DNA of 64,000 nucleotides from Myxococcota bacterium (GTDB lineage Bacteria > Myxococcota > Kuafuiibacteriia > Kuafuiibacteriales > Kuafuiibacteriaceae). The notes below the pieces were generated by a model. That model was not told where the DNA came from. It ran no database searches and saw nothing but the letters and a program-made list of their open reading frames with translations. How positions within the stretch are numbered: the stretch's first letter is position 1; each line of letters begins with the position of its first letter. This document shows, in pieces, positions 13,846 through 62,074 of the stretch. A program made the position numbers and the translations under genes. The stretch covers positions 16,942 through 80,941 of the forward strand of contig JBCCQA010000021.1 of the NCBI GenBank assembly GCA_039024635.1. Reading direction: 5' to 3'.

Positions 13846-13848
13846 GTC

Positions 13849-20477: not shown

Positions 20478-20491
20478 GCCGCTGTAGTGAG

Positions 20492-20506
20492 CAACGCCCG
20501 TGCCAT
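20492..20506 (-). promoter_or_regulatory. Sigma54 (-24/-12) promoter for the PDO gene: TGGCAC-gggcg-TTGCT on the minus strand
   Basis: Plus-strand text is GCAACGCCCGTGCCA. Reverse complement fits the TGGCAC-N5-TTGCW consensus. ~15 nt upstream of the PDO start. Confidence 0.5.
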
Positions 20507-20596
20507 GAGCGTCTTAGCGCCAATGGTCGGAAGAGACGGTTCTGGAAAGGCCCCGTCGGTTGCTCGGCTGCCATCCCTGGCAGTATCTTTTTCTCC

Positions 20597-21931: not shown

Positions 21932-21984
21932 CGTCCTCGGCGTGACGCCGCCCGTCATCTAGCGCCGGGGGGGACCCCGCAGCC

Positions 21985-22000
21985 TGGCCCATCGGTTGCA
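21985..22000 (+). promoter_or_regulatory. Sigma54 (-24/-12) promoter TGGCCC-atcgg-TTGCA upstream of the DUF1641-sqr operon
   Basis: Matches TGGCAC-N5-TTGCW with correct spacing. 13 nt upstream of ATG 22013. Confidence 0.55.
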
Positions 22001-22012
22001 GACGCACGGGTC

Positions 22013-22672: not shown

Positions 22673-22686
22673 AAGGAAAGCTCAGA

Positions 22687-23871
22687 ATGTCTCATCACGA
22701 AATCCTCATCGTTGGCGGCGGAACCGCCGGAATCAGCGTCGCCTCGCGCATCATGGAAAGCTCTTCAACGAGCGATGTCGCCCTCGTCGAGCCGGCCGAA
22801 ATGCACTACTACCAACCTCTTTGGACACTCGTCGGGGGTGGGGTCTTCGATCGGGAGGACAGCGGCCGTCCCATGGCCGATGTCATGCCCAGCGGCGTGG
22901 ACTGGTATCGAAATAGGGTCTCCGGCTTCGAGCCCGCGTCGAATCAGGTTGAGCTCGATGATGGTCGTAAGCTCAGCTACGATATCCTGGTCGTAGCGGC
23001 AGGGATTCAGCTCGACTGGAACAAGATCGAGGGCCTCCCCGAGTCTCTCGGCACGAATGGGGTTTGTAGCAACTACTCCTACGACACCGTTCCATACACT
23101 TGGGAGCTCCTGAAGAACTTTACCGGTGGCGAGGCGCTCTTCACCTTTCCCAGCACACCCATCAAGTGCGCGGGTGCTCCACAGAAGATAATGTATCTGG
23201 CTGAGGAGACTTTCAGGCGCAACGGCGTCCGGAGCCGCACCCACGTCAACTACATGTGCGCGGCCGGTGCGATTTTCGGGATCCCGAAGTACCGAGCGGC
23301 GCTGGAGAGGATCGTGTCCAGTCGCGGGATCGACGCGGAGTTCAAGAAGGACCTCGTGGCCATCCGTGCTTCCGAGAAAGTGGCCGTGTTCAAAGACATG
23401 GACACCGGAGCCACCGAGGAACGGAACTTCGACATGATCCACGTGACGCCGCCTCAATCGGCGCCGGACTTCATCAAGCAGAGCTCGCTAGCCGGGACGA
23501 CGGGTTGGGTCGAAGTCGACAAGCATACGCTGCAGCACGAGCGATTCCCGAACGTCTTCTCCTTGGGAGACTGCAGCAACCTTCCTTGCTCGAAGACGGG
23601 GGCAGCCGTGCGAAAGCAAGCGCCGGTCCTCGTGGAGAACATTCTAGCCTATAGGACTGGAAGCGCGATGAGCGGGCACTACGATGGCTATGCCTCTTGT
23701 CCGCTGGTCACCGGCTACGGAAGGGTCATCCTGGCCGAGTTCGGCTACGAAGGGAAGGTCATGGAGACTTTTCCTTTCGACCAGGCGCAGGAGCGATACT
23801 CGATGTACGCGCTGAAGGCATACGGGCTACCTCAGATGTACTGGCACGGCATGCTGCGAGGCCGGCTTTGA
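22687..23871 (+). CDS. sqr: Type II sulfide:quinone oxidoreductase (SQRDL-like flavoprotein)
   Basis: N-terminal FAD fold IVGGGTAGISVA. Both SQR catalytic cysteines in their conserved contexts: PIKCAGAPQKIMYL and LGDCSNLPCSKTGAAV (compare the human SQOR Cys201/Cys379 motifs as I recall them). Confidence 0.75.
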   Translation: MSHHEILIVGGGTAGISVASRIMESSSTSDVALVEPAEMHYYQPLWTLVGGGVFDREDSGRPMADVMPSGVDWYRNRVSGFEPASNQVELDDGRKLSYDILVVAAGIQLDWNKIEGLPESLGTNGVCSNYSYDTVPYTWELLKNFTGGEALFTFPSTPIKCAGAPQKIMYLAEETFRRNGVRSRTHVNYMCAAGAIFGIPKYRAALERIVSSRGIDAEFKKDLVAIRASEKVAVFKDMDTGATEERNFDMIHVTPPQSAPDFIKQSSLAGTTGWVEVDKHTLQHERFPNVFSLGDCSNLPCSKTGAAVRKQAPVLVENILAYRTGSAMSGHYDGYASCPLVTGYGRVILAEFGYEGKVMETFPFDQAQERYSMYALKAYGLPQMYWHGMLRGRL

Positions 23872-47846: not shown

Positions 47847-49334
47847 ATGAGTTCGAGATGGGGGACCCTGGCCGTCTGCCTCGCCACAGGGGCGGGGGCC
47901 GTCCCAGCTGCGGCCGAGTCGGTCTCTGCCCCCGCCGAGGCCAAGGCAGCCCCTGGTCGGACCCGCCTGGCGATCGTGGTCGGCCATAACGGCAGCCAGA
48001 CCCCTGGTCGAGCCGAGCTCCGCTTTGCCGACGACGACGCGGCTCGCTACTTCGAACTCCTCGCTCCGGCCATGGATCGGGCTTGGCTGCTGACGGGCTT
48101 CGATGACCTGAGCCAAGAAGTATTCGCAGAGCTGGTCCCCATCGCGCGGACACCGACCCGTATCGCTTTGGAGGCCGTTCTGCTGGAGGCCGAAGTCGTT
48201 CTGAAGGCGGCCCGCGAACGCGGAGACCGCACCGAGCTGATATTCGTGTACGCCGGTCACGGCGACGTCTCGGACGGGATGGGCTTCGTCAATCTAGAAG
48301 AGGGCCGCCTGACCCGGGTCGATTTCGAGGACCTTGTCCTGGACGGTCTGCCGACGGACCGAAAGCACGTCATCATCGACGCCTGTCGCTCCTACTTCCT
48401 CGTGTCCTCCCGAGGGCCCGGCGGGACTCGGCAAGTTGCGCCCCAGTCCTACGCCGGCCCTCGTCGTCGGGCCGGCGTGGGCTTCGTCCTCTCGACGTCG
48501 AGCGACGCTGAATCCCATGAGTGGGCCTCTTTTCAAGGTGGCGTGTTCTCCCATGAGATCCGTTCGGCCCTGAGCGGAGGTGCAGACCTCGACCTCGATG
48601 GAGCGGTCGACTACCAAGAGCTCGCCGCCTTCGTCGCGGTGGCCAACGAAGGCATTCCTCAAGCTCGCTATCGGCCGCGCTTCTTCATCCAACCTCCGAG
48701 CGAAGACAAGGCGGTGCCGGTTTTTGCGCCCGCCGACACCGGCGTGCGATGGTTGGAGCTTCCCGAGAGAGTCGAGGGACGGGTTCGGGTGACCGATCAT
48801 CGCGGCGTGCCGTACGCCGACCTCAACAAGGCTGCAGGCGACGTGCTGCGTATCGCCCTCGTCGGCGTGGGGGATCATACGGTGGCTTGGGGAGATCGCC
48901 GTTGGCGGATGGACGGCGCCCTTCCTCGGGCGGAGCTGACCAGTCTGCCCGAGGCGCCGGGGGAGGTCGCTGCTCGGACGCAGCCCCACGAGGCCTTTCG
49001 ACACCTATTCTCGACGCCGATGAGTGCCGAGGTCCTCCGAGGTTGGCGCCTGGGTGCCCGACTGACGAAGTCGGCCCCGGAGCCGCCGCCGCGCAGGCTG
49101 CGTTGGCTCCCCCCAACCATGGTGGGCATGGGGCTCGCGCTTGCCGGAGGGGGAGCAGCCATGCTGGTGGCCGGGGCCCAGAGTCGGTCCGACTTGGCCG
49201 ACTCGAGTCTGTCTCAAGCGGACCTGGCCTCCAGGGCCGACGAGGGCGACACCCTGGTGGCGGCCGGAATCGTCACCGCGGCAACGGGCCTCGTCCTGGG
49301 GACGATCGGCGGTCTGATCTGGAAGCGCTACTAG
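47847..49334 (+). CDS. Secreted, C-terminally membrane-anchored caspase-like peptidase (C14 family)
   Basis: Signal peptide. His/Cys dyad contexts YAGHGDV and IIDACRS. Two C-terminal TM helices. Divergent from the ECF sigma/anti-sigma pair. Confidence 0.6.
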   Translation: MSSRWGTLAVCLATGAGAVPAAAESVSAPAEAKAAPGRTRLAIVVGHNGSQTPGRAELRFADDDAARYFELLAPAMDRAWLLTGFDDLSQEVFAELVPIARTPTRIALEAVLLEAEVVLKAARERGDRTELIFVYAGHGDVSDGMGFVNLEEGRLTRVDFEDLVLDGLPTDRKHVIIDACRSYFLVSSRGPGGTRQVAPQSYAGPRRRAGVGFVLSTSSDAESHEWASFQGGVFSHEIRSALSGGADLDLDGAVDYQELAAFVAVANEGIPQARYRPRFFIQPPSEDKAVPVFAPADTGVRWLELPERVEGRVRVTDHRGVPYADLNKAAGDVLRIALVGVGDHTVAWGDRRWRMDGALPRAELTSLPEAPGEVAARTQPHEAFRHLFSTPMSAEVLRGWRLGARLTKSAPEPPPRRLRWLPPTMVGMGLALAGGGAAMLVAGAQSRSDLADSSLSQADLASRADEGDTLVAAGIVTAATGLVLGTIGGLIWKRY

Positions 49335-49559
49335 CCTCCGAGCCCTCGAGAAGGGGGCCAGCCTCCTGGCCCGGTCGCCCCACGGAGTCTCCGCTCAGTT
49401 CGGGGGGCCCTGGTGTCGGTCGTTGGCCAATCGCGTCCCAGAATGGCCATCTCAGAGGACTGTGCCGATCCGGTCAGTAGCCCCGCATCCAGCCAGGAGG
49501 AATCTCTCCACTTTGGAACAGCGAGTCCGGGACAGGCTGTCCAGCAGTGTCCGACCTGT

Positions 49560-49575
49560 TGGCCCGGTCCTTGCG
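49560..49575 (+). promoter_or_regulatory. Sigma54 (-24/-12) promoter TGGCCC-ggtcc-TTGCG
   Basis: Consensus spacing is correct. 13 nt upstream of ATG 49589. Confidence 0.5.
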
Positions 49576-49588
49576 AGGTTGAGGGGTC

Positions 49589-50647
49589 ATGAAGCCAACA
49601 GCGGCGACCCGACCGACCGTCTTGCTCGTGAGCCCTCCCGCGCCGGGGATGCCCTTGATCCAGCGGGCGATTGAGAAGAAGGGATGGCGAAGTGTCTGTC
49701 GGACGGCTCCGGAGGCCTTCCAAGAAAGCAAGGGCCTGGAGTTGGCCGTCATCGACGTTCAGCACGCCGGTCCATCGACCGCTCTTCTCGCGGCAGCCCT
49801 GCGGAGTCACGCGCCACAGCTTCGTATCGTCTTGATGGCGAAGGAGCCGTGCTTCGAGCACGCCATGCTAGCCCTCGAGCTCGAGGCCGAGACCCTCATC
49901 CATGGCCCCGCACCCTGGGGTCAGCTCGAACGCGTCCTCAATCGGTCAGTCCCTAAGCAGCTGGCCCGCAAGATGCGAACCGTCCTGGCCATCGGCGCCC
50001 ACCCTGACGACGTCGAGATCGGTCTGGCCGGGACCCTGGCCAAGCATCGAGAAGCCCAGGACCGCATCGTCGTTCTCACCTTGAGCGGAGGGGGGTCGGG
50101 AGGGGATTCGAAGATGCGCCGCCGTGAGGCTCTGGAGGCCGCCCGGAGAATGGGAGCTGAGCTCGTCCATCTCGACTTCGAGGACACGCGGATTCCAGAA
50201 GATGAGCCGGTCATCACCGCGATCGAAGACCTCATCCGACGGATCCGCCCTGACGTCGTCTACACCCACTCGCTGAACGACAACCACCAGGACCACCGTG
50301 CCGTTCATCGGGCAAGCTTGGTCGCTGCTCGAGGTGTTCCCACCGTCCTGGCCTACCAGAGTCCGTCGGCCAACGTCGACTTCCGACCGACGAGGTTCGT
50401 GGCCATCGATCGACACTTCGACGCCAAGCTATGGGCCGTCGATGCCTATGCCTCTCAGGTCGGCATCCGACCGTATCTGGACCCCAACCTCCTCGAGAGC
50501 AACGCCAAGTACTGGGGCCGCTTTCGCCAGTACCGTCTTGTCGAACCCTTCGAGGTGATCCGCGACGCTGCCTTTGACATCGCCACGGCCGACCTTGGTG
50601 CTGCCCTTCGCACCGGGTTGTCTGTGGCCCAGACCAACGGAAAATGA
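49589..50647 (+). CDS. Fusion: N-terminal receiver-like (pseudo-receiver) domain + PIG-L/LmbE-family N-acetylglucosaminyl deacetylase
   Basis: C-domain motifs AHPDDVEIG and HQDHRAVH are typical of the LmbE/MshB/BshB zinc deacetylases. The N-terminal ~120 aa has a CheY-like alpha/beta pattern without a clear acidic pocket. Confidence 0.6.
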   Translation: MKPTAATRPTVLLVSPPAPGMPLIQRAIEKKGWRSVCRTAPEAFQESKGLELAVIDVQHAGPSTALLAAALRSHAPQLRIVLMAKEPCFEHAMLALELEAETLIHGPAPWGQLERVLNRSVPKQLARKMRTVLAIGAHPDDVEIGLAGTLAKHREAQDRIVVLTLSGGGSGGDSKMRRREALEAARRMGAELVHLDFEDTRIPEDEPVITAIEDLIRRIRPDVVYTHSLNDNHQDHRAVHRASLVAARGVPTVLAYQSPSANVDFRPTRFVAIDRHFDAKLWAVDAYASQVGIRPYLDPNLLESNAKYWGRFRQYRLVEPFEVIRDAAFDIATADLGAALRTGLSVAQTNGK

Positions 50648-51654
50648 GGACTGACTTGAAGAAGAGAATCTTGATTACCGGCACCGGAGGGCCAGCTGGC
50701 ATCGGAGCCTTGCGCGCACTAGCCGATTCCGGCCACGAGCTCGTGGCTGCCGACATGAGCGAGATGGCATCGGGACTGTTTCTCGTGCCGAGAGAACGGA
50801 GAGTGCTCCTCCGCCCTGGGGCTCATCCTCAGTTCGTTCCTCAACTGATGCTTGCTTGCGCCGAGCTGGGCATCGACACGGTGCTTCCAACTGTTGATGC
50901 GGAGCTTCTACCTTTGGCGGAAGCGAGCAGAGATCTTCGGAGCCGAGGCATCGAGCTTGTGGCGCCCGGAACGAAGGCCCTTCGGACCTGTTTAGACAAG
51001 TTCCAGCTGTTCGTTCTGGCCTGCGGCCACGTTCCTTGTCCGAGGACTGCTCTATTCGGAAGGTCCTTCGATCCAAACGGTTGGCGCTTCCCGCTCATCG
51101 TCAAGCCGCGTCGAGGAAGTGGAAGCAGAGGTGTCATTCAAGTTCAGTCGGAGAGAGAGCTTCGCCAGCTCGAAAGGTCGCCGGACCTCATCGTCCAACA
51201 GTTTCTACCGGGCATGGAGTACTCTGTCGACGTCCTGGCCCAAGGCAACGGGGAAATGCTCGTCGCTGTCCCCAGGAGTCGTCTTGCGACGGACAGCGGT
51301 GTATCAGTTTGTAGTCAGACGCACTTTGATCCAGAGCTCATCGAGCTAGCACGCCGGGCCTGCGAGATCGTAGGTCTTCGCTTCGTTGCCAACGTTCAGT
51401 TTAAGCGAGACGCGTCTGGTCGGCCCAAGCTGATGGAGATCAATCCTCGCATTCCCGGGACGATCGGGCTGACGGTAGCGGCGGGAACGAACCTGCCCGC
51501 GCTGTCCTTGGACGTCTTGGATGGGCACGTCATTCCCAAGGAGGCACTGAAGTTCCGAGAATTGGCGGTGGTTCGGATGCTCACGGAGGTCTTTGTCGAC
51601 CCCTTAGAGTTCCAGCAGTGTACTCGGCCTGAGCCCCTACAGGCTTCAGCGTAG
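50644..51654 (+). CDS. ATP-grasp family ligase
   Basis: ATGA coupling to the deacetylase gene. ATP-grasp fold signatures (PLIVKPRRGSGSRGV...EINPRIPG). Confidence 0.6.
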   Translation: MRTDLKKRILITGTGGPAGIGALRALADSGHELVAADMSEMASGLFLVPRERRVLLRPGAHPQFVPQLMLACAELGIDTVLPTVDAELLPLAEASRDLRSRGIELVAPGTKALRTCLDKFQLFVLACGHVPCPRTALFGRSFDPNGWRFPLIVKPRRGSGSRGVIQVQSERELRQLERSPDLIVQQFLPGMEYSVDVLAQGNGEMLVAVPRSRLATDSGVSVCSQTHFDPELIELARRACEIVGLRFVANVQFKRDASGRPKLMEINPRIPGTIGLTVAAGTNLPALSLDVLDGHVIPKEALKFRELAVVRMLTEVFVDPLEFQQCTRPEPLQASA

Positions 51655-53040
51655 TCCGTACTTCTTGAGCTTCCGGTAAAGAGTGGTCCGGCCGATACCA
51701 AGCAGCCGGACGACTTCCGAGATGTTCCCTCCCGTGTCTTCCATGGCGTTGACAATGGCCTGCCTCTCGAGCGCTTCCATACGGCTCTCGCCTCGTTCCG
51801 GGGTCACACCAGTCGCGGAAACGGAGTCGATCGTCGACTGGCCCGAATCTGCGCCCATGGCCTGGGCCACGTCGGCGGGCAAGTCTTCAAGGCGAATGAG
51901 GTCTCCTGTGGCCATCACCGACGCTCGCTGGATTGCATTCTGCAGCTCGCGGACGTTCCCCGGCCACTCGTACTCGGCGAGAGCCCGTAGAGCTGCGTCT
52001 GAGATTCGCTTGGGTGCCTCTGTCGTGAAGTCTCGCACGAATCTTTCTGCTAGCAGCGGGATGTCGCTCGATCGATCTCTGAGAGGAGGTACCTCGACTT
52101 GGAAGACGGCCAGACGATAGTAGAGGTCGGCCCGGAAACGACCTTCCTCCACCATCTCTCGAAGGTCACGGTGACTAGCGGACAAGAGGCGGAAATCGGA
52201 CCGGATGGTCCTGGTACCACCCACTCGGCTGAACTCTCGCTCTTGCAGAACTCGGAGGAGCTTTGCTTGCAGCCCGGGGCTGAGCTCTGCAACCTCGTCC
52301 AGGAAGAGGGTCCCGCCGTGGGCTGCCTCGAAGCGTCCGATGCGACGGTCGATCGCGCCCGTGAAAGCGCCCTTCTCGTGGCCGAAGAGCTCACTCTCCT
52401 GCAAAGTCTCGGGTACAGCAGCACAGTTCAGAGCGACGAAGCTGCCTTCGCTTCGAGGGCTTCGTAGGTGAATGGAGCGGGCGACCAGTTCCTTGCCCGA
52501 TCCACTCTCTCCCCGGATCAAGACAGTGATGTTCTTCCCGGCGACCCTATCCAGCTGGCGAAGCAGCATCCTCATGGTTTGGGCCTCGCCAAGAAGATCA
52601 AGGCCACGGTCTGTCCTCTCCAGTTGGCCGACCCTCTCCCGCAGGCGCCGCTTTTCGATAGCTCGACTCAGTACGAGCTCGAGGCGCGGAAAGTCGAGAG
52701 GCTTGGTCAAGTAGTCGTAGGCCCCGAGCTGGATGGCCTCGACGATGGAACCAGTGCCATCATCGACCGAAACGAAGACAATCGGAACATCGGGGAAGCG
52801 TCTTCGGAGCTGTGGCATGGCCTCCGGCCCCGTCTGATTCGGCATGATACGGTCCAGGAAGATCACGTCGAAGTCAGACCGATCGCTAGCTGCCAACAGC
52901 TCTGTGATATCTTCGAAGGACTCAACTTCGTGGCTTCGCTGCTCCAACCAACGACTCAAGACTATGGTGTGAGATCGGTCATCGTCGACGATCGCCACCG
53001 AAGCCGGTGCTCCTGACATGTTGGCCACGGTTTCACTCAT
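51646..53040 (-). CDS. Sigma54-dependent response regulator (NtrC family: receiver + AAA+ + HTH)
   Basis: Receiver (VAIVDDD...FDVIFLD). GESGSGKE Walker A and GAFTGA sigma54-contact motif. C-terminal HTH. Alternative start MSGAPAS at 53019. Confidence 0.8.
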   Translation of the reverse strand: MSETVANMSGAPASVAIVDDDRSHTIVLSRWLEQRSHEVESFEDITELLAASDRSDFDVIFLDRIMPNQTGPEAMPQLRRRFPDVPIVFVSVDDGTGSIVEAIQLGAYDYLTKPLDFPRLELVLSRAIEKRRLRERVGQLERTDRGLDLLGEAQTMRMLLRQLDRVAGKNITVLIRGESGSGKELVARSIHLRSPRSEGSFVALNCAAVPETLQESELFGHEKGAFTGAIDRRIGRFEAAHGGTLFLDEVAELSPGLQAKLLRVLQEREFSRVGGTRTIRSDFRLLSASHRDLREMVEEGRFRADLYYRLAVFQVEVPPLRDRSSDIPLLAERFVRDFTTEAPKRISDAALRALAEYEWPGNVRELQNAIQRASVMATGDLIRLEDLPADVAQAMGADSGQSTIDSVSATGVTPERGESRMEALERQAIVNAMEDTGGNISEVVRLLGIGRTTLYRKLKKYGLR

Positions 53041-54484
53041 CTTGGAGCTCTTCTGTATTCTGGCCGTGTGTTCGGGGATGCTCCCGGTCGTTGCTGGCCT
53101 GTATCAGTTCCTTCTTGTGGGATTGTCGCCATTTGGGGGTAGGACGCAAGACGTCGGGTTGGCGCTACCTCGAGTCGCCATCCTGATTCCGGCCTGGAAT
53201 GAGGGTGCAGTGATCGCGACGACCATTCGACGCCTCATGAAGCTCGACTATCCGACGGATCGACTTCGGGTCTTCGTGATCGATGACGCTTCAACGGATG
53301 AGACCCCATGGGCCTGCATCGAGATGTCTCGGCTCTTCCCCAGGCGAGTGGTGCATGTACGCCGAGTAGCAGGCGGCGAAGGGAAGGCTCACACGCTCAA
53401 CTACGGGCTAGATATCCTGTGGGCTGATGAATGGACGGAAGCTGTCCTCATCATGGATGCCGACGTCATCTACACTCGAGACGCCCTCAAGCGTATGGCC
53501 CGCCATCTTTCGAATCCCGGAATCGGTGCTATCACCGCCTACATAAAGGAGGGGAGCAAGCGTCCCAATCCGGTGCAGCGTTTCATTACCTTTGAGTACA
53601 TCACTGCGACAGGCGCATCTCGTCGGGCGCAAAACGTCCTTGGGTTCCTTGCCTGCTTGTCGGGGGGCGCTCAGCTTCACTCTCGAGAGAATCTGATGGC
53701 CATCGGCGGCAAGATCTTCAGCCATACCCTTGCAGAGGATACCTTCACGACTTTCCGGACCCAGTTGAGGGGCCGCTCCGCGATCTTTGAGCCTCATGCC
53801 GTCGTCTACGCAGAAGAGCCTGATTCCATCGTCGGTCTGTGGAAGCAGAGGGTGCGGTGGGGTCGGGGCAACGTACAGATTACGAGGGTCTTTAGGCGAC
53901 TCTGGTTCAGACCTTCAGTCCATCCCACACTTGGTTCCTGGTCGATGGGCCTGCTTTGGTTTTCGATCTTCTTGATGCCGGCCTTTCAGATTGCGGCCGC
54001 GACCGGACTGGTCATTCTGTTCTTCCTGGATGCAGAGTCGGCCTGGCAACTTTTCCGACTGTTCTGGATTACGGCTGCACTGGTCTACCTCGTGGTCACC
54101 TTCGTGTCCTTCGTCGTCGACTGGGAGTCGGCACGCAAGTCCTGGTTCGAGGGGCTGACATTTCCAGGGTTCATTTCTTTGGGCGTAATCGGCTACGCCC
54201 TGTTTCCAGGGTTCGTGGAGGCTCTGTGGCCGTGGCCATTGGCCCCTGGTATCGCCGTCAGCCTCACGCTCTTCCTCTACGCTTGGACAGCCCTGTCCAT
54301 GTGCGCTGCCTACCTTTGCAAATCGGTTGAGACTCGAGGGTTTCCGGGCACGGCGTCCTTCCTTCTGTACTTCGCCGGGTACGGACCCTTCCTATGCGCC
54401 GTGACCTTTGCTTCCTATGTCAAGGAGCTCACCGGAGCGAGCATGAAGTGGGACAAGACGGTCAAGACGGGGAAGGTGAGCTGA
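53018..54484 (+). CDS. Processive family-2 glycosyltransferase (PgaC/BcsA/HAS-like polysaccharide synthase)
   Basis: LIPAWNE, DDASTD, DADV (DxD) and QRVRWGRG (QxxRW) motifs. TM helices at both ends. True start is probably the internal Met at 53078 to avoid overlapping the divergent regulator. Confidence 0.7.
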   Translation: MLATVSLILELFCILAVCSGMLPVVAGLYQFLLVGLSPFGGRTQDVGLALPRVAILIPAWNEGAVIATTIRRLMKLDYPTDRLRVFVIDDASTDETPWACIEMSRLFPRRVVHVRRVAGGEGKAHTLNYGLDILWADEWTEAVLIMDADVIYTRDALKRMARHLSNPGIGAITAYIKEGSKRPNPVQRFITFEYITATGASRRAQNVLGFLACLSGGAQLHSRENLMAIGGKIFSHTLAEDTFTTFRTQLRGRSAIFEPHAVVYAEEPDSIVGLWKQRVRWGRGNVQITRVFRRLWFRPSVHPTLGSWSMGLLWFSIFLMPAFQIAAATGLVILFFLDAESAWQLFRLFWITAALVYLVVTFVSFVVDWESARKSWFEGLTFPGFISLGVIGYALFPGFVEALWPWPLAPGIAVSLTLFLYAWTALSMCAAYLCKSVETRGFPGTASFLLYFAGYGPFLCAVTFASYVKELTGASMKWDKTVKTGKVS

Positions 54485-54830
54485 GTCCTTTGGTTCGCAC
54501 GAAGAAGGACAGTCCAAGCCCGCTTCGCGGCTCAACAGAGAACTTGAACTCGATTCGGTCGGGCCAGACTTTCCACGAGTCCAAAGGAAAGGGCGTGAAA
54601 GAGAGGCCGCCCCACGCCTCGAGGCTGAGCATGTATCGATGGGGCTGGTCGCCGTAGTGCAGAGTCTCCAAGACAAGGTGTCGATCTGACCCAAGACGGA
54701 GAGAAAACCGTGTGATCTCCTCGAGGCTACTGCCGGGCTCGTCCACGCCGACCGAAGTGGACTCGCACTCGAAGCCTGCTTCTCTAAGAGCCTGAGCGGC
54801 CACTTCCAGGTAGGCCGGGGTCATTTCCAT
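54462..54830 (-). CDS. Hypothetical protein (122 aa)
   Basis: ORF only. No recognisable motifs. Overlaps the GT2 stop by 22 nt. Confidence 0.2.
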   Translation of the reverse strand: MEMTPAYLEVAAQALREAGFECESTSVGVDEPGSSLEEITRFSLRLGSDRHLVLETLHYGDQPHRYMLSLEAWGGLSFTPFPLDSWKVWPDRIEFKFSVEPRSGLGLSFFVRTKGLSSPSPS

Positions 54831-54833
54831 GGT

Positions 54834-55079
54834 CTAGTTGATCCATAGCTCTCGGAGCATGAGTAGTCCCCCCAGAACGGAGAGTACGAGCCCGACACGG
54901 TACATCAGCAGTCGCTCTCGCTCGAGGTCCAGTAGCACCTGCAGACGAAAGAGATGTTGATGCGCTTCACGAGGCGGCAGTGCCTCTTCCTTGAGTGGGG
55001 ATGAAGGGGGTGGCCTCTCCCCATTCCCAGGGAAGCTCAGGATATTGTCTTCATGTTCCATGTCACTAATTCGATCCAC
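54834..55079 (-). CDS. Small membrane protein (81 aa), hypothetical
   Basis: One C-terminal TM helix. A further ~59-aa TM ORF lies at ~55045..55220 (-) with ATGA coupling to the upstream gene. Confidence 0.2.
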   Translation of the reverse strand: MDRISDMEHEDNILSFPGNGERPPPSSPLKEEALPPREAHQHLFRLQVLLDLERERLLMYRVGLVLSVLGGLLMLRELWIN

Positions 55080-55212
55080 TCAGATGCCATCAAGAGACTC
55101 AATACGACGTCGCCCAGCATGAATAGGAGGAAGAGCCTCCGAAACCAGCGAGTGCGTTGCTTCGTTAGCCGAAGACATCTCTGAACCGACAGCGTCTCTT
55201 CCTCGATGCTCA

Positions 55213-57126
55213 TCATGATTCACTCTTCTCCAGTATCTCGATGTCGTCTGCAGAGCCTTCCCGAAGCCGAGCCGAGCGAGCTTCCAGCATCAGGAGAGCG
55301 ACGAGGCCGGCGAGAGCGATGAGGCTTGCTGCCAGCCATCCTCCGTTGAATGCTCTGGTCTTCGTCACCTCGTCGCTCGGGACGTTGTCCGCATGATCCG
55401 AGCGCGCTATCTTCTGGCTGCTGAGCAGTGAGGCTTCGCCCAGGCCGGTCCATCCCCGTTCCGAAAGGGCAACGCTTGCATGGTCAAGGTTCGACGCCAG
55501 CGGAGCCGATAGTCGCTTGGACAGAGGCTGGTCCCACAATGCGACCTCGATATGGGGGGGCATGGCGTGGGCGAGGGCGAGGGCTCGAGGTCGGTCGAGG
55601 ACGGGCACCGGGAGATTCGTACTAGGGGCGGGGACCAGCCCGACATCAGTCACGAGTAGCTCGCGGCTTTCCAGACTCTGAGGCGCCGCTATCCAGAGAT
55701 CTGCTTGCTCTCGTGCTTCCGTCCAGACCCAAGGACCTCGTATCCGGTCAGGGTCGCGAAGAGCCTGCATGAGAAGGGCGAGTGTTCGCAGCTGCGTCGA
55801 CCTGCGCGGAAATTCGCCTCCAAGTCGAAGCGGGGTTTGGGCCGAGCCGAGGATACCAAGAACCGTAGCGCGGCGGTTTTCCAGTCTCTCCACTTCAATT
55901 CCACTCTCGGCCCCAAGCCTGAACCAGACGGATCCGTCTGGAAGAGCTGCACACCGTCGATCCTCTGCCGGTTCAGCGATGATGAGAACCTCGAGGCTCT
56001 TAGCTCCCTCATCGCCTCCGGGGATGGGGGCATCAAGACGGTGATCTCCGTCTCGAAGTCGTCTGATTGCCCAAGAAGCCGTCGTGACGCCATCGACCTT
56101 GATGATGATGGCACTGGCGTCGAGATCCAGAAGGTCCCTCCCACCAAGGGAGAAGTCCAATACCCAGCGGGGTTGGCCTTCCAGGATGTGATGGGTCGAG
56201 GACGCCCAAGTCGTGACGAACCGATGGGACCCGATTCCCTTGGCTTCCCAGCCTCGTGCCAAGCCCATGTTCTTCAAGCGAGAGGTTCGTAGCGTGGGTT
56301 GGGCTGGAGATGTCTCGAGTGAGCTCGGAGTTGCTTCTCGTGAGCTCGTGGCCACGCGGCAGCTCGTAGGGCCGCAGCGCTCGCGGAATGAGGGGCGAGA
56401 GAGCAGCTCGACAGTCCTCAGGAGGCAGCTTCCATCCCGAGCTGCAATATGAAGGTTAGGCCCAGCAGCCTTGATTTCGGCACATAGCAGCTTGTGGAGC
56501 TTGGGGTCGAGGGCCATGCGCAGACGATGAACGGATGAGGACTCTTCCGGATTGTGAGGTGACCAATCTTGGCTGAGGAGGTGGGCGCGAAGGAGAGCTA
56601 GGCGGGTTCCGGTACTCGTGTCGGTTCCTTTGAACTCGACCGATAGGAAGCTCCGAAGACCCCTAGGGAGTTCGTCGATGTTGAGGACGCTTCGCTCCCG
56701 TCGATGACGTCGTACGACCTGCATGTCGATTCGCAGCCATGCGCCCTCCAGGTACTCTTGGAGACAAGGCTCCCCATCTACTCTGAGGTCGGCCGTCAGA
56801 GAGAGGGTATGAAAGCCCCTGGACCGACCGGGCAGTTTGACCAGCAGCGTCCTTGCTTCATCGAGTCTGAGTGAGCGTAGGGGTTGGCCATCAAGGCGAA
56901 CGGTCAGAGTCGAGCGGTCGAGGGCTACCAGCGCGGATGGCGCTAGTCGGAGAAGGACGGCCATGGGGCGCGTAGCTTCGTCCCATGTCAGAGGGACATC
57001 GTGAGATGTCCGGCGCCCGTCGAGGACGATCCCGTCCCGGGGCTCGGCTTTGGTCGAGGTCCGAACGCCTAGCTCGGAGGGAAGGACGAGGCTGACGCCG
57101 AGGCAGGCGATGCAACTCGCCATCAT
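55213..57126 (-). CDS. Large periplasmic protein with signal peptide and C-terminal TM anchor (BcsB-like polysaccharide synthase partner?)
   Basis: 637 aa. N-terminal signal. Single C-terminal TM helix (GWLAASLIALAGLVALLML) then a short acidic tail. Topology is the same as cellulose synthase subunit BcsB. No sequence motif confirms it. Confidence 0.3.
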   Translation of the reverse strand: MMASCIACLGVSLVLPSELGVRTSTKAEPRDGIVLDGRRTSHDVPLTWDEATRPMAVLLRLAPSALVALDRSTLTVRLDGQPLRSLRLDEARTLLVKLPGRSRGFHTLSLTADLRVDGEPCLQEYLEGAWLRIDMQVVRRHRRERSVLNIDELPRGLRSFLSVEFKGTDTSTGTRLALLRAHLLSQDWSPHNPEESSSVHRLRMALDPKLHKLLCAEIKAAGPNLHIAARDGSCLLRTVELLSRPSFRERCGPTSCRVATSSREATPSSLETSPAQPTLRTSRLKNMGLARGWEAKGIGSHRFVTTWASSTHHILEGQPRWVLDFSLGGRDLLDLDASAIIIKVDGVTTASWAIRRLRDGDHRLDAPIPGGDEGAKSLEVLIIAEPAEDRRCAALPDGSVWFRLGAESGIEVERLENRRATVLGILGSAQTPLRLGGEFPRRSTQLRTLALLMQALRDPDRIRGPWVWTEAREQADLWIAAPQSLESRELLVTDVGLVPAPSTNLPVPVLDRPRALALAHAMPPHIEVALWDQPLSKRLSAPLASNLDHASVALSERGWTGLGEASLLSSQKIARSDHADNVPSDEVTKTRAFNGGWLAASLIALAGLVALLMLEARSARLREGSADDIEILEKSES

Positions 57127-58262
57127 GGCGACACCTCGAAGCCGACCGTCAGGGACTGGCTACCGAAGGCGCCGTCAATCCTGTCGTAGCGAACTAGGGT
57201 CCCCCAGGCGTGATGGAGCGTGGCGCCTATCTCGACGTTGGTGCTCAACAAGTTGCGGTCGGCGTTCAAGGCTGCTCCGGCGGAGGCCTTGGCTCTCTCG
57301 AGCTCGAATCCAAGCCTCAGGCTAGGAACGACACTCGTCCTGGCGTCGAAGTCGTGGATGACTCCGAGGCCCAGGCCCGTTCGGAGTGGACCAGGACTCC
57401 AGGCTAGGCCGGCGTTGCCTCCCGTAGAGAGGCGGCCGTCTTCTCGTGCGGAGCCTTGAACGCGTCCAATCAGACTCCACGCGGACGAGAGGCTTCGGCT
57501 GACCGAGAGACCTAGTTCACCGCCGGAGAGAGGCGGATTTCGAAACATGGTCGCCGAGCCAGCCCAGGTCGTCTTCTGGCTTCTATGGCTGGCCCAAAGG
57601 GTCCCGCGCTGGCCCAGCTCCGAGGCCGATGTCGCATTGCTCTCAGGTCCAAGAACCCGCGCCGAATAGACTCCGCCCAGGGTCCACTTGGCACCCGCGG
57701 CGTAGCGGAGGCTCAGTTCGCCTCCAAAGGACTCCCTTCCAGGCAGCCAAGTAGGACCTCCGGCGGCTGTTAGGCTCAGTCGATGCGCGCTTTGGGCCCG
57801 AGCGTAGCCCTGAATGGCTTCGTGGAAGGTGGGATCGACCGCCAAAGCGGATGCGTAGAGGGCGTTGGCTTCGCTAGGACGTCGTCTCTGCAGCGCGAGC
57901 GCGCCCGCTCCCGACCAAAAGTCGACTCGGTTCGGTTCTGCTTCGAGCAGTTCGTTCCAGAGTTCCTCGGCAGCGGCGGTCTGGCCAAGCCAGCCCAACA
58001 CTCGAGCCTTCATCGCTTGGAAGCTCAACTCCGTGGGTTCGAGCCGGACGGCCCTCTCGAGAGCGTCCAGGGAGCCCGCAAGATCTCCTCTCCAGGCCCT
58101 TGTTACGCCGAGTTCGAACCAGAGCGAGCCTCGATCGGGATGGACCCGGCATAGGGACTCGAAACCCCTCTCCGCTTCCTCCAGCTTGCCAGCAGAACGG
58201 AGTTCGACGACATCGGCTACGCCTTGTGCGGCCAGGCTGGCGAGAAGAACCAAAGCCGTCAT
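57123..58262 (-). CDS. TPR-repeat protein with C-terminal beta-barrel-like domain (PgaA/BcsC/PelB-like export component, short form)
   Basis: N-terminal TPR repeats (e.g. ...AWRGDLAGSLDALERAVRLEP...). C-terminal half with alternating-residue beta strands. ATGA-coupled to the BcsB-like gene. Confidence 0.45.
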   Translation of the reverse strand: MTALVLLASLAAQGVADVVELRSAGKLEEAERGFESLCRVHPDRGSLWFELGVTRAWRGDLAGSLDALERAVRLEPTELSFQAMKARVLGWLGQTAAAEELWNELLEAEPNRVDFWSGAGALALQRRRPSEANALYASALAVDPTFHEAIQGYARAQSAHRLSLTAAGGPTWLPGRESFGGELSLRYAAGAKWTLGGVYSARVLGPESNATSASELGQRGTLWASHRSQKTTWAGSATMFRNPPLSGGELGLSVSRSLSSAWSLIGRVQGSAREDGRLSTGGNAGLAWSPGPLRTGLGLGVIHDFDARTSVVPSLRLGFELERAKASAGAALNADRNLLSTNVEIGATLHHAWGTLVRYDRIDGAFGSQSLTVGFEVSP

Positions 58263-58981
58263 CGGACAGTCTCCGACCCTCGTTGAGCGAAGGAGAGAGA
58301 GGATAAGTAGCGCCAGAGACCAATCTTGTAGGAGACATGAGCGTCACTGCTGGCCTTCAGGCAGACCCCTCGTGACCAGAGGCCTTCGGCAACGCGCGGG
58401 CCGGGAGCACGCCAGCGCTCGTCGACCTCAAACCAGCACCCGGTCTGGTGAGATACTTCGGCAAGGCGGTCGAGATGCCTCTCCTCGACCATCGTCTCGT
58501 CAAGTCTCAGCTTGGGAAGGACGCTGAAGAGGTGGGCGATGGCCACGCGCCGGTCCGACTGCATGGCCCGACAGCTGGATCGCACAAGTGCGTCGATGAC
58601 CTGCTCGGCTCGGAGGCTGCCATCCTCTAGCCCGGCTCGAACCTGCTTGGGATCGTGGCATTGCGAGCCGAGAGGGACCCTGTGGTCGGCCGCGAAGATG
58701 ACGTCGACCCCTGGTGTCGCCTCAGGTATATCCAGCCGGCCTTCCTCGTCGAGCAGCTTCGCTTCTACGCCGCAAAGGAGGGTGACGGGCGTTTCTCGGC
58801 TGAGCAATCGGACAGCCTCGACGAAGCCTGGGAGCCAGCATGAATCTCGACGGACGTGGTCGACGCATCCAAGGACCTTCAGGCCCATCTCCTCAGCCCT
58901 TCGTGTGTTCTCGCGCAGGGTGTGCTTTCCGTCGGAGAAGGTGGAGTGGACGTGGTGGTCTTCGTCGAGTCGCATGGCCAT
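58259..58981 (-). CDS. PHP-domain phosphoesterase (CpsB/YwqE-like Mn-dependent protein-tyrosine phosphatase?)
   Basis: N-terminal HHVHSTFSDG PHP motif. 240 aa. Exopolysaccharide locus context. Confidence 0.55.
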   Translation of the reverse strand: MAMRLDEDHHVHSTFSDGKHTLRENTRRAEEMGLKVLGCVDHVRRDSCWLPGFVEAVRLLSRETPVTLLCGVEAKLLDEEGRLDIPEATPGVDVIFAADHRVPLGSQCHDPKQVRAGLEDGSLRAEQVIDALVRSSCRAMQSDRRVAIAHLFSVLPKLRLDETMVEERHLDRLAEVSHQTGCWFEVDERWRAPGPRVAEGLWSRGVCLKASSDAHVSYKIGLWRYLSSLSFAQRGSETVR

Positions 58982-59092
58982 AGCTAGAGCAACTGCCGTG
59001 CCGAAAGCTGGTCCGGTTTCCCGGGCGGATGAGGTGGGGAGGGTGTTCCGTTTCGGTCAGAGCGGGCCGAAACGGAACGAATAGCCCGCCTG

Positions 59093-62074
59093 TCAGCAGC
59101 GACGGCGTCGGAGACACAGGGCGAGCAGCCCCAGCAGCAGTCCAATGACCGTGGGCTGGTCTGTCGAGCTGCAATTGAAACCCGCGTCGGCCTCCTGGAT
59201 GAAGAACTCAGGATCCTCGACGGTCTCTTGGTCAAAGCGAAGCTCGCTCACTTCGAGAATCTCGGCATCCTTCGAGTAGACCGTCAGCAGGTCGGCCTGC
59301 TCCAGTCCTCGAAGAACTCCAGAGAGTCGAAGCTCTCCGTCCCAGGCAGAGACGGTCCGACACCGTCGTCGACCGCTTTCCGTGTCCTCCAGACAAACCT
59401 CGCTCGGAGCACTGGACTCCAGGTGAAGCCCGAGGTGTCCGTAGGCGCCGAGTTGGACGGGTCGAACGAAGTGGCGCGCAACCCCAAGTGGACCCTCATC
59501 AGGTCGGTCCGCTCGGCCGCAACCGGCGAAAGCCAAGGAGGCATCGACGGAGACGCCCTCGAAGAGGCAGCGTTCTGTCGAGAACCGGGATGCGTCGTCG
59601 GTCCAAAGTCCCTGGTCGTAGGGCGCCCACCAGCCATCGGATAGCCACAGGCGGTCCAGGCGCTGGTCGCCCGCCCAAAGCTCGAGCGTAGCTTCTTTCA
59701 TGAATCCCTCGAACACCTGCAGCTGGTCGGTTCCCTCCGAGATTCGGAGCCATCTGCGCTCGGTTCCGTCGCCTTGGGGCGCCTTCGTTTCGAGCAAGAC
59801 CCGGAGCTCGGGAGTAGCCCCACGCCGGGCCAAGGTTGCTTGGAGCGTCTGGCCCCAGGCTCCGCCCCTCCTGAAATAGGCCCCTGGGAGTGGACTTGTG
59901 GGCGGCAAACGGACGACGGGATTGGGCACTTCCTCGTCCACCAATCGGGGCTCTGCAGGGGCCACGGTGTTCATGAGCTGACCGACCAGGCTGTTCGCGG
60001 TGTGGTCTTCTCGGGCCCAGATTTGAACGTTGAGGACGTTCTGACCTTCCTCCACGAGCGGGTAGTCCTCGCTGAGCCAACGGGAATGGACGGACCAGTC
60101 TTCGCCTTCTTGATAGAGCTTGAAGAGTCGGGCTTGGTCCAGGCCGCCGGAACCTCGGAAGAGGCCGCCCACGATCTCGACGTCGTCGTGCCATCGGCTG
60201 TTGAGCTGAATGAGCTCGGCTCCGTGCGCGCGGTCGCACAGTGGCTTGGAATGCTCGTAGACTGCCCCCACGGTTTCGATGAGGAGAATCGAAGCCTGGC
60301 GCAGACCGTTCTTGCCGAGGAAGTCCAGTCCGACAACGTCAAGCGCGTTCGTGATACTTGGCAGATCGGACGGCGTGACCTCGACGGTCTCGAGGTCTTC
60401 CAGAGCCAAGGAGTCGACCAAGGAAGAAAGGGAAGAGCTGGCCTTCAGTCTCTGAAAGAAGGGCGTCATATGACCCCTTCTGATGGCCCTCGTGGCCATC
60501 TGAGTGGCTCGTCCTCCGTTCGATTCCAGACCACCGACACCGCTGGAGGACACGCCGAGCGCGTATTGGGCGCCATCCAGAACGCCGTTTCCATCCGTGT
60601 CGGCGTCGTCGGGGTCCGTCCCGTAGTAGCAGGATTCCTCGAAGTTGCTGAGACCGTCTCCATCGTCGTCATCGGCCCCGTTGGTGGCGACGACTTCAAT
60701 CGTGGTCGAGGTCGACGTTTCGAGGAAGGTGTAGGTGTCCAGCAAGGAGAGGTTCCCCTTTCCAGAGGAGTTGAAGTTACCCCAGCTCCGGGCGTTCACA
60801 TTGGCTGTCGCAGCCGTTCCGTAGGGCGCGGACAGAATCCCGCTCGCCCCCGATGTTTCCAGTCCTTTGACGCCATTCGGCATGCTCTGAGCTCGGCTCT
60901 GAACGGCGGAGTCGTTCCAGTACATCTCGAGTGGAACTCGTGTTCCGGAGGCTTCGACTTCGTACAGCATGAAACCGGGGTAGCTCGTCTCGATATCGGT
61001 CCCGACATAGTGAAACTCGCCCACGTTGACGCGAACTCGACAGTCGTAGGCGCCCTCTGCGATCGGTGTTCCTTGGTGAATTGCGTTCCAATTGATCGTG
61101 TTCAGACCGATGCTGGTCCGTCCCATGAGCAGAAGGTCGTCGTTGTTCGTGGATTCGAAGACTCCGTCGTCGTCCAGGTCGCACTGAAGGTGGAAGGTGC
61201 CTTCCGCATTCGTATTGAACTGAAACAGGCCGAAGGACACTCCTGGAACGACCTGGTTGCAGGGCGAGATGGTGCTCCCAAGTACTGATTCACTGACGCC
61301 ACCAATGTACTCGAGACCGTACACGCCGGGGGCCGTCCGGCCGTAGCCCGCGACACTCGGAGGCTGCAGGTAGATGGGAAACTCCGGAAAGACCTGATTC
61401 CCGTACTGAGCAACAGAGCGTCCGCCCTGCAGGAGAGGGCCGACGCGGTTCGCATTGATGTTGTAGACGTAGCCGGACAGGCCCTGAAGAGCGAGCTCGA
61501 TGACAGCATCGGTCCCGGTTGCTCCTCCAGGGAGCACGGCATAGAAAGAGCCTTGGGTGGCTCGGGCTTGGGCAAAGGAACCCGCGTTGAAGGCCCAATC
61601 CTGGCTGAACAGTCGCCCTCCGCCATCGATGGGGTTGAGGACAGAGACATCCCAGCGGGAGCCCGGAATCTGGAAGGAGTTGACGAGGACGCCGTAGGCT
61701 CCGTTCGGCTCGTTCGCTAAGGGGATGGATGCTCCAGAGGATAGGTTCGAGAGACCGGAACCGTCGGGACGGGTGATGCTGACGTTTCCCCTTCCTGTCC
61801 ACTGAATCGACTCAACGGAGCTATCGAGGATGTCCACATAGAGTTGGGTGCCAGATCGCAAGGCTTGATAGGTGTTGAGTTGATCGGTGCCTTCCGCCCG
61901 CGCGTGGTTGCTCAGCAGAAGGGCAGCAAACACATTCAGGCATCGAAGGCGTGAGCGGTCTCGTCTCATGACGAGGGCCTCTGCAGCTCCTATTCCAACT
62001 TGCATTGCGACGTGGACACTCACCGCCCGGCCGATTTGGGACGAGTCTGTTCCGCTCCGGTACAGCGAGGTCAT
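59093..62074 (-). CDS. Large secreted surface protein with TSP3-like Ca-binding Asp-rich repeats and a MYXO-CTERM-type C-terminal sorting tail
   Basis: GTG start. Signal peptide. DDDDGDGLSNFEESCYYGTDPDDADTDGNGVLDG repeats. C-terminus ...NCSSTDQPTVIGLLLGLLALCLRRRRC (Cys, Gly-Leu-rich TM, Arg cluster). Confidence 0.55.
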   Translation of the reverse strand: MTSLYRSGTDSSQIGRAVSVHVAMQVGIGAAEALVMRRDRSRLRCLNVFAALLLSNHARAEGTDQLNTYQALRSGTQLYVDILDSSVESIQWTGRGNVSITRPDGSGLSNLSSGASIPLANEPNGAYGVLVNSFQIPGSRWDVSVLNPIDGGGRLFSQDWAFNAGSFAQARATQGSFYAVLPGGATGTDAVIELALQGLSGYVYNINANRVGPLLQGGRSVAQYGNQVFPEFPIYLQPPSVAGYGRTAPGVYGLEYIGGVSESVLGSTISPCNQVVPGVSFGLFQFNTNAEGTFHLQCDLDDDGVFESTNNDDLLLMGRTSIGLNTINWNAIHQGTPIAEGAYDCRVRVNVGEFHYVGTDIETSYPGFMLYEVEASGTRVPLEMYWNDSAVQSRAQSMPNGVKGLETSGASGILSAPYGTAATANVNARSWGNFNSSGKGNLSLLDTYTFLETSTSTTIEVVATNGADDDDGDGLSNFEESCYYGTDPDDADTDGNGVLDGAQYALGVSSSGVGGLESNGGRATQMATRAIRRGHMTPFFQRLKASSSLSSLVDSLALEDLETVEVTPSDLPSITNALDVVGLDFLGKNGLRQASILLIETVGAVYEHSKPLCDRAHGAELIQLNSRWHDDVEIVGGLFRGSGGLDQARLFKLYQEGEDWSVHSRWLSEDYPLVEEGQNVLNVQIWAREDHTANSLVGQLMNTVAPAEPRLVDEEVPNPVVRLPPTSPLPGAYFRRGGAWGQTLQATLARRGATPELRVLLETKAPQGDGTERRWLRISEGTDQLQVFEGFMKEATLELWAGDQRLDRLWLSDGWWAPYDQGLWTDDASRFSTERCLFEGVSVDASLAFAGCGRADRPDEGPLGVARHFVRPVQLGAYGHLGLHLESSAPSEVCLEDTESGRRRCRTVSAWDGELRLSGVLRGLEQADLLTVYSKDAEILEVSELRFDQETVEDPEFFIQEADAGFNCSSTDQPTVIGLLLGLLALCLRRRRC

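Follow-up and report, generated by a model that had tools for sequence, protein, structure and literature searches.

The stretch of DNA analysed here (the window, 64,000 nucleotides from contig JBCCQA010000021.1 of the Myxococcota assembly GCA_039024635.1) carries at 49560-51654 a -24/-12 promoter-like element followed by two overlapping genes on the forward strand. The first (49589-50647, 352 amino acids) encodes a receiver-like domain fused to a PIG-L/LmbE zinc deacetylase, and the second (50644-51654, 336 amino acids) encodes an ATP-grasp enzyme of the PylC/CPS-like/2PN1 group. An earlier sequence-only reading treated these two genes as a self-contained cassette, which proved too narrow, as the pair is linked across phyla to a phosphatase and a processive family 2 glycosyltransferase (GT2), and in Gram-negative bacteria also to a tetratricopeptide repeat (TPR) protein and small proteins. 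The interpretation preferred here, to which we give a probability of roughly 0.6, is that the pair is one transcription unit of a ~12.5 kb synthase-type exopolysaccharide locus (49560-62074), and that this locus would be a rewired copy of a widespread module.

The deacetylase domain is encoded at 49985-50647 (+) and retains intact AHPDD and HxDH motifs. AHPDDVEIG corresponds to residues 137-145 of the fusion protein (nucleotides 49997-50023) and HQDHRAVH to residues 233-240 (nucleotides 50285-50308), and the Pfam PIG-L profile (PF02585) spans residues 133-246 with a score of 102.4 bits against a cut-off of 28.2. In an alignment of open reading frames (ORFs) from 80 species-level loci, the zinc-binding and catalytic residues H138, D140, D141, H233, D235 and H236 are present in the window protein and invariant throughout. 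An AlphaFold model of the receiver plus PIG-L protein (pLDDT 86.7) was compared with known structures using Foldseek, which returned TT1542 as the best fold for the deacetylase (1uan, E 6.5e-15, TM-score 0.79), together with BC1534, the chitobiose deacetylase Dac and BshB; PorX and PleD were weak full-length matches of the fusion protein. Profile, zinc-ligand residues and fold all agree with the original deacetylase assignment, and alignment of the zinc ligands gives the same answer. The domain has neither a signal peptide nor a transmembrane (TM) helix, so the enzyme is predicted to be cytoplasmic. Catabolic deacetylation of chitobiose, raised by the likeness to Dac, was rejected because the genes beside that of the deacetylase consistently encode an ATP-grasp enzyme and a biosynthetic GT2.

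The full-length fusion protein retrieves more than 1800 homologues, and PF00072 (Response_reg) and PF02585 occur together in all but 2 of the 120 best, the exceptions being the window protein and P0036. The N-terminal 132 residues of the window protein (49589-49984, +) gave no Pfam match, PF00072 included, even at E 10. They align with the Pfam-positive receiver of homologue P0003 at 30% identity (E 4e-11), and the AlphaFold model places their elements in (beta-alpha)5 order (E10-14/H21-30/.../E102-105/H110-120, with blocks at pLDDT 80-93). The phospho-acceptor D56 is retained, and three of the five pocket positions are lost, with S15-P16-P17 in place of E/D-D-D, A84 in place of the threonine and G106 in place of the lysine. 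The Mg-binding acidic pair is thus P16-P17 in the window; 46 of the 80 aligned loci keep the full pocket set (E/D-D-D, D, T/S, K), and loss at three positions is seen only in the window copy. Alignment and model together indicate that the N-terminus is a receiver, predicted to have decayed in this lineage from an otherwise ordinary one. The earlier description of a receiver-like domain without an obvious phospho-acceptor pocket therefore stands as far as the pseudo-receiver is concerned, the acceptor aspartate itself being kept. Its suggestion of direct regulatory input through the fused domain is upheld for the family; for the window copy, whose receiver has decayed, it probably does not apply.

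The deacetylase and ATP-grasp ORFs overlap by ATGA at 50644-50647, and the translational coupling proposed for them is upheld. The ATP-grasp ORF scores 112 bits with ATPgrasp_Ter and 62 bits with ATP-grasp_3, and the PRK12767 "carbamoyl phosphate synthase-like" models match it below their equivalog cut-offs. The ATP-binding residue K154 and the E265-x-N267-x-R269 segment, which includes the Mg-binding E-x-N, are kept and invariant. The best fold for its AlphaFold model (pLDDT 91.5) is the uncharacterised structure 2PN1 (TM-score 0.87), followed by biotin carboxylases, L-amino-acid ligases and PylC, and the comparison pointed to no particular substrate. The chemical logic put forward earlier, in which the deacetylase frees an amine and the ATP-grasp enzyme forms an amide, is judged reasonable.

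Further along the locus lies the gene for the processive membrane GT2 (53018-54484, +, 488 amino acids), with the motifs DDAS89, DAD147, ED240 and QRVRW277 and with TM segments at residues 7-25 and 310-426, one of them N-terminal and at least four C-terminal. Of the curated models, PgaC_IcaA scores highest for this protein by a wide margin, at 124 bits against a cut-off of 422; NodC (55 bits), HpnI (39 bits) and Glyco_transf_21 are also matched, as are the BcsA, HAS and PcManGT structures by sequence. The 119 best non-self relatives of the GT2 are 59-72% identical to it, including across phyla. Identities are lower for the tailoring enzymes, at 40-56% for the PIG-L fusion and 40-58% for ATP-grasp relatives above about 200 bits.

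The remaining genes of the locus are on the reverse strand. Next to the GT2 gene are those for a 122-amino-acid soluble accessory protein (54462-54830), which has homologues in loci from Myxococcota, Acidobacteriota, Xanthomonadales and Thermoleophilia, for an 81-amino-acid protein with one C-terminal TM helix (54834-55079), and for a 59-amino-acid single-TM protein (55037-55216), the third of a small-protein trio found near the GT2 in relatives. The last of these is ATGA-coupled to a gene for a BcsB-like periplasmic protein (55213-57126), which begins with a signal-like segment and is anchored near its C-terminus by a TM segment at residues 596-614. The BcsB model matches the window protein at E 0.025 and its orthologue in the Myxococcota locus L041 at E 1e-15, and the orthologue in L004, from the same phylum, weakly matches CBM_BcsB. 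A TPR protein with an N-terminal hydrophobic segment (57123-58262) and a PHP-family phosphoesterase (58259-58981, with the second ATG at 58975 as the likely start) follow, and a 993-amino-acid protein with a MYXO-CTERM-like C-terminus (59093-62074), a conserved neighbour in Myxococcota loci, is tentatively included. The BcsB-like and TPR proteins are candidate export partners, and no beta-barrel porin was identified. Like the deacetylase, the ATP-grasp enzyme and the phosphatase have no signal peptides or TM helices.

Linkage was counted within 6 kb in 46 non-redundant species-level GTDB loci with an intact receiver. The ATP-grasp gene is present in 40/46, PHP in 36/46, and the GT2 and a homologous histidine kinase in 34/46 each, with several of the missing partners falling at contig ends. 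A Cellulomonas operon contains, in this order, the receiver-PIG-L fusion, ATP-grasp, PHP, GT2, a 58-amino-acid membrane protein and a PAS histidine kinase, and the Myxococcota loci L004, L041 and L086 add the BcsB-like, TPR and small proteins. The order in an Acidobacteriota locus is GT2, three small genes, TPR, ATP-grasp, Hpt, receiver-PIG-L and PHP, and a Legionella locus has GT2, TPR, ATP-grasp and receiver-PIG-L. In the Xanthomonadales locus L089, the GT2 and three small genes occupy one strand, and the other carries receiver-PIG-L, ATP-grasp, TPR, a low-molecular-weight (LMW) phosphatase and GlmS; here LMWPc (13588-14127) stands in place of PHP. A distant Micrococcales variant combines an ECF sigma/anti-sigma fusion with PIG-L, ATP-grasp and GT2. 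ATP-grasp and PHP are fused in one actinobacterial protein (P0135, L087 8001-9560), and P0237 joins a distantly related ATP-grasp to LMWPc. Capsule tyrosine kinases are also served by two phosphatase families, PHP and LMW-PTP, but no kinase of that kind is present here.

These neighbourhoods, as annotated from sequence, show a core module conserved across phyla. Its four parts are a cytoplasmic PIG-L enzyme, which usually carries a phosphorylatable receiver as a fusion, an ATP-grasp enzyme, a phosphatase that is PHP except in one lineage with LMW-PTP, and a highly conserved processive membrane GT2. In Gram-negative bacteria a TPR protein and three small proteins join this core, and in Myxococcota a BcsB-like protein does so as well; the window holds the Gram-negative version in full. 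The module occurs in Actinomycetota, Myxococcota, Acidobacteriota, Xanthomonadales, Legionella and Burkholderiales. The closest relative of the window locus is L086, with the same gene arrangement and with PIG-L, ATP-grasp and GT2 at 56%, 58% and 72% identity; its PIG-L gene has no receiver at all.

From these parts a working mechanism can be proposed. In the cytoplasm, the PIG-L domain would de-N-acetylate a GlcNAc-type unit, the ATP-grasp enzyme would spend ATP on a new amide bond made on or with the freed amine, and the phosphatase would strip phosphate from one of the substrates. The PgaC-like GT2 would then polymerise and translocate a hexosamine-containing polymer, with the BcsB-like protein, the TPR protein and the small proteins assisting. 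Two observations point to a hexosamine polymer: PgaC_IcaA is the best model for the GT2, and GlmS is encoded within the cluster in three loci (L041, L044 and L089). For the deacetylase, possible targets are nucleotide sugars, sugar phosphates, primers and chain ends. So understood, the module would function in the manner of synthase-dependent exopolysaccharide systems; its cytoplasmic tailoring branch and its type of enzymatic response regulator would both be new.

An unlikely alternative is that the product is a membrane-associated glycolipid or short oligosaccharide and not an exported polymer, in keeping with Nod-factor or GPI logic: the GT2 would make a GlcNAc-lipid or chito-oligomer at the cytoplasmic face, the PIG-L enzyme would deacetylate its terminal GlcNAc and the ATP-grasp enzyme would re-acylate it. 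In Nod-factor synthesis a GT2 (NodC) builds the GlcNAc chain, the NodB deacetylase frees one amine and NodA re-acylates it, all on the cytoplasmic side. The order of chemistry and the cytoplasmic side are shared with the module as a functional analogy only, and a cytoplasmic trio of tailoring enzymes does fit NodC/NodB/NodA and PIG-A/PIG-L logic better than it fits tailoring after translocation. The GT2 matches to NodC, HpnI and Glyco_transf_21 point in the same direction, as do the nearest PIG-L folds, which act on small glycosides (chitobiose for Dac, GlcNAc-malate for BshB). The enzymes themselves differ, however, as NodB is a CE4 enzyme and NodA an acyltransferase, whereas the module uses PIG-L, an ATP-dependent ATP-grasp enzyme and an added phosphatase, and its export components are different. 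The QRVRW motif, the C-terminal TM helices of the GT2, the anchored BcsB-like partner and the PgaA/BcsC-like TPR proteins argue instead for translocation of a polymer, PgaC_IcaA outscores the other GT2 models by a wide margin, and no NodIJ-type ABC exporter is present in the cluster.

Also given a low probability is a pathway resembling that of Cj1438 and Cj1435 of Campylobacter jejuni, in which the ATP-grasp enzyme would amidate a carboxylate (for example a uronic acid or small acid) with a phosphorylated amine and the PHP or LMW phosphatase would then dephosphorylate the product. The amine might be GlcN-6-P, supplied by GlmS or obtained from GlcNAc-6-P through PIG-L. Experimental precedent comes from synthesis of the C. 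jejuni capsule (PMC11800379): an ATP-grasp amidoligase fused to a GT2 works with serinol-P or ethanolamine-P, and the phosphate is afterwards hydrolysed by a separate phosphatase. The module likewise brings together a putatively amide-forming ATP-grasp enzyme, a GT2 and a phosphatase of its own for the assembly of a polysaccharide. The coupling of ATP-grasp and phosphatase is also seen in the fusion proteins P0135 and P0237 and in the displacement of PHP by LMWPc in L089, and GlmS, which makes GlcN-6-P, is encoded in the three clusters named above. Against this, no UDP-sugar dehydrogenase or other uronic-acid gene was found in the clusters, the ATP-grasp enzyme is PylC/CPS-like and not TupA-like as Cj1438 is, and the universally conserved PIG-L would be redundant if GlmS supplied GlcN-6-P. 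The C. jejuni system further differs in that its phosphatase is of the HAD type, it depends on an ABC transporter and it has no deacetylase or receiver. The exopolysaccharide reading is preferred over both of these alternatives.

Promoter elements were scored over the 11 specified positions of TGGCAC-N5-TTGCW. The sigma-54-type element ahead of the PIG-L gene, TGGCCCGGTCCTTGCG (49560-49575, +), is TGGCCC-N5-TTGCG and matches 9/11 positions, with GG and GC at the standard spacing and the C of its -12 GC (49574) 15 nucleotides before the ATG. It is intergenic, on the correct strand and near an enhancer-binding protein gene, and equivalent elements at a like distance from the ATG are found in the Myxococcota loci L086 (9973-9988) and L041 (9898-9913). 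The -24/-12 promoter recognised earlier is thus near-consensus and kept in two relatives. The second element, CGGCACGGCAGTTGCT (58988-59003, -), has its -12 C 14 nucleotides before the second ATG of the PHP gene and precedes the operon that runs from PHP through the TPR and BcsB-like genes to the small ORFs. L086 has CGGCACAGCAGTTGCT at 19196-19181, one base different from CGGCACGGCAGTTGCT and in the same geometry before its own PHP operon. Sigma-54-type elements therefore precede both operons in the window and L086 and the PIG-L gene in L041, and L004 has four, one ahead of each of its four transcription units, with ordinary leaders of ~35-50 nucleotides.

It is improbable that the -24/-12 match is fortuitous and that transcription of the gene pair depends instead on a sigma-70-type promoter or on read-through out of the caspase-like gene upstream, with translation from a GAGG/GGGG Shine-Dalgarno-like sequence. 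The core pattern TGGC-N7-TTGC occurs 4 times in the window, which is no enrichment over the 1.74 expected (10/100 shuffles reach 4), a purine-rich Shine-Dalgarno-like stretch does lie between the -12 element and the ATG, and the leader of 0-3 nucleotides predicted below would be atypical. Since the bare pattern is not enriched, the case for the promoter rests on its context. The element and its spacing of 14-15 nucleotides from the ATG are kept in L086 and L041 while the intervening bases are not conserved among the three loci, with no obvious Shine-Dalgarno-like stretch in L086. The same geometry recurs before the PHP operons of the window and L086, and again in two further window elements (20505-20490, -, and 21985-22000, +) before genes that flank an independent enhancer-binding protein gene (20597-21931); the four elements of L004 before its transcription units argue the same way. 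Position and conservation together make the PIG-L element a credible sigma-54 promoter.

Every sigma-54-type element beside an enhancer-binding protein gene in the window, L086 and L041 has its -12 C 14-15 nucleotides before the ATG of an ORF of 219-352 amino acids. Transcription from sigma-54 promoters usually starts 12 nucleotides after the C of the -12 GC. Because of this spacing, sigma-54 transcripts in this Myxococcota lineage would be leaderless or have leaders of 0-3 nucleotides. Leaderless sigma-A transcripts in myxobacteria have been mentioned (PMC12754779), and no more was found on leaderless sigma-54 transcripts in the searchable literature.

The putative regulator is an NtrC-type enhancer-binding protein encoded at 51646-53040 (-), with an intact receiver, an AAA+ domain carrying GAFTGA (residue 224) and HTH_8. 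Its gene converges with that for the ATP-grasp enzyme on one side and stands head-to-head with the GT2 gene on the other, and the same insertion is found in L086 and L041. With GAFTGA present and the elements conserved, sigma-54 control through this adjacent activator, as first proposed, is plausible. The activator and GT2 starts overlap or abut, sharing CATG at 53017-53020 if the activator starts at Met8, and in L086 (13114-13121) the two starts are 3 nucleotides apart. Given this predicted arrangement, the promoters of the two genes must each lie within the other gene; no -24/-12 match at 8/11 positions or better was found for the GT2. Candidate activator sites are a perfect 12-bp inverted repeat (GTTCCGTTTCGG, a 10-nucleotide spacer and CCGAAACGGAAC; 59045-59078), which lies just after the stop of the 993-amino-acid gene and 42-75 nucleotides upstream of the -24 element of the PHP operon, and a 6-1-6 palindrome, GGACAGGCTGTCC (49530-49542), which lies 18 nucleotides upstream of the -24 element of the PIG-L gene. 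The inverted repeat could alternatively be a terminator hairpin. GGAACA is the sole 6-mer that all four upstream regions (those of the window and L086) contain; a rough estimate puts the chance expectation at ~0.09, and as a shared activator site it is too weakly supported to be proposed.

In most relatives, a histidine kinase or Hpt relay of the cluster would phosphorylate the receiver and so gate the deacetylase. In this Myxococcota lineage, an NtrC-type activator would have been inserted and sigma-54 promoters would drive the operons, leaving the receiver dispensable, with its pocket residues lost in the window and the domain deleted in L086. When the window was searched by tblastn with the L001 kinase and with the L086 H-NOX protein and hybrid kinase, the only match was the receiver of the NtrC-type activator. 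Sigma-54 transcription appears to have taken over control from enzyme phosphorylation, because the receiver is decayed here and lost in L086, the window holds no homologue of these kinases, and sigma-54 elements are present. In L086 (7819-9911) and in the Xanthomonadales locus L089 (17687-20606), an H-NOX (HNOB) gene and a hybrid histidine kinase gene lie beside the cluster, which suggests nitric oxide (NO) or O2 sensing as an input in some lineages. A fuller version of the exopolysaccharide reading is held only tentatively: the product would be an undescribed exopolysaccharide with non-acetyl N-substituents (aminoacyl or carboxyacyl) added in the cytoplasm, with flux gated by receiver phosphorylation, wired to H-NOX and NO in some lineages, and with this gating replaced here by a leaderless sigma-54 switch.

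Several points weigh against reading the locus as a rewired exopolysaccharide synthase system. The substrates and products of the module enzymes are predictions, and amide ligation by the ATP-grasp enzyme is not assured, because beyond 2PN1 its closest folds are bicarbonate-activating carboxylases. In the known synthase systems for poly-N-acetylglucosamine (PNAG), cellulose, Pel and alginate, tailoring takes place after translocation, whereas all three tailoring enzymes here are predicted to be cytoplasmic. The trio of PIG-L, ATP-grasp and PHP may also work without an adjacent synthase, because four Leifsonia loci (L008, L009, L015 and L057) have receiver-PIG-L, ATP-grasp, PHP, a stand-alone receiver and a kinase and no GT2 within 10 kb. 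With regard to control, the near-absent 5' leader implied by the promoter geometry is unusual and no rpoN gene is present in the window. The receiver is intact in L041, decayed in the window and absent in L086, all of which carry the activator, so that activator insertion alone does not predict receiver loss.

The analogy drawn in the sequence-only reading, with a bacillithiol/mycothiol-type pathway to a low-molecular-weight thiol or cofactor, is very improbable: BshB1 is the best NCBIfam match of the deacetylase (E 3e-25) and BshB is among its closest folds, but the scores fall below the cut-offs (BshB1 89 against 182.5 bits, BshB2 32 against 195, Mca 28 against 277 and MshB 19 against 224), no GT4 (BshA/MshA), cysteine ligase (BshC/MshC) or MshD is encoded in the window cluster or ~90 related loci, and the genes conserved beside the pair encode a membrane GT2, a phosphatase, and TPR and BcsB-like proteins. 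What is shared with BshB and MshB is the fold, the zinc site, the catalytic aspartate and the freeing of a GlcNAc-glycoside amine for later ligation; the linkage to a membrane synthase and the receiver fusion in relatives are not. In relatives the pair does belong to an operon with additional genes, but the operon is not a known one.

Comparison with other known systems gives a similar picture of partial likeness. With PNAG synthesis (PgaABCD/IcaADBC) the module shares a processive GT2, small membrane accessory proteins, a TPR protein and de-N-acetylation of a hexosamine. It differs in the GT2 score, far below the PgaC_IcaA cut-off, in the cluster having no CE4 deacetylase (PgaB/IcaB), detectable PgaD or PgaA porin, in its cytoplasmic PIG-L deacetylase with ATP-grasp and phosphatase, and in the BcsB-like subunit in Myxococcota. 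Cellulose-type BcsA-BcsB/BcsC systems also have a D,D,D,QxxRW GT2, a C-terminally anchored periplasmic partner of the kind matched by the BcsB model and a TPR protein. Unlike them, the locus has no PilZ or BcsZ, its GT2 is much shorter and its BcsB likeness is weak, and Bcs operons do not have the cytoplasmic tailoring enzymes found here. As judged from its predicted genes, the module lacks defining features of the bacillithiol/mycothiol, PNAG and Bcs systems and so belongs to none of them. The fusion protein resembles CheB, PleD/WspR and PorX in having an enzyme behind an N-terminal receiver, and relatives encode a cognate kinase or Hpt nearby, but its output is a PIG-L deacetylase and the window copy is a pseudo-receiver.

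No description of the module or of the receiver-PIG-L fusion was found in the searchable literature, in agreement with the earlier impression that the combination is not a described system; an earlier mention in reviews on amidoligases or response-regulator outputs is possible, and a paper on exopolysaccharides in Actinoplanes (PMC13390465) deals with other clusters. If the proposed function is true, cytoplasmic ATP-dependent re-amidation would be a fifth tailoring logic for synthase-dependent polysaccharides. The module would also be a clean case of a two-component system acting on a biosynthetic enzyme and not on transcription, and a receiver with a deacetylase output would be a new class of enzymatic response regulator. 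The window and its relatives offer a natural experiment, with a kinase and an intact receiver, an activator and an intact receiver, a decayed receiver and no receiver, and they point to sigma-54 promoters that apparently yield leaderless transcripts. Culturable carriers include Cellulomonas, Microbacterium, Leifsonia and Legionella rowbothamii, which makes these questions directly testable.

Finally, some other features of the window were recorded. The independent enhancer-binding protein gene mentioned above belongs to a second sigma-54 unit (19593-23871), in which the PAS-AAA-HTH_8 activator gene (20597-21931, +) is flanked by genes for an MBL-fold hydrolase (19593-20477, -) and a DUF1641 protein (22013-22672, +), each behind its own -24/-12 element, and a pyridine-nucleotide-disulphide oxidoreductase gene (22687-23871, +) follows that for DUF1641. 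The caspase-like gene upstream of the PIG-L promoter (47847-49334, 495 amino acids; Peptidase_C14, E 7e-7) encodes a protein with a hydrophobic C-terminus and is not conserved beside the cluster in relatives. Another, smaller GT2-family glycosyltransferase of 329 amino acids is encoded at 17854-18843 (-) and is unrelated to the cluster as far as checked.

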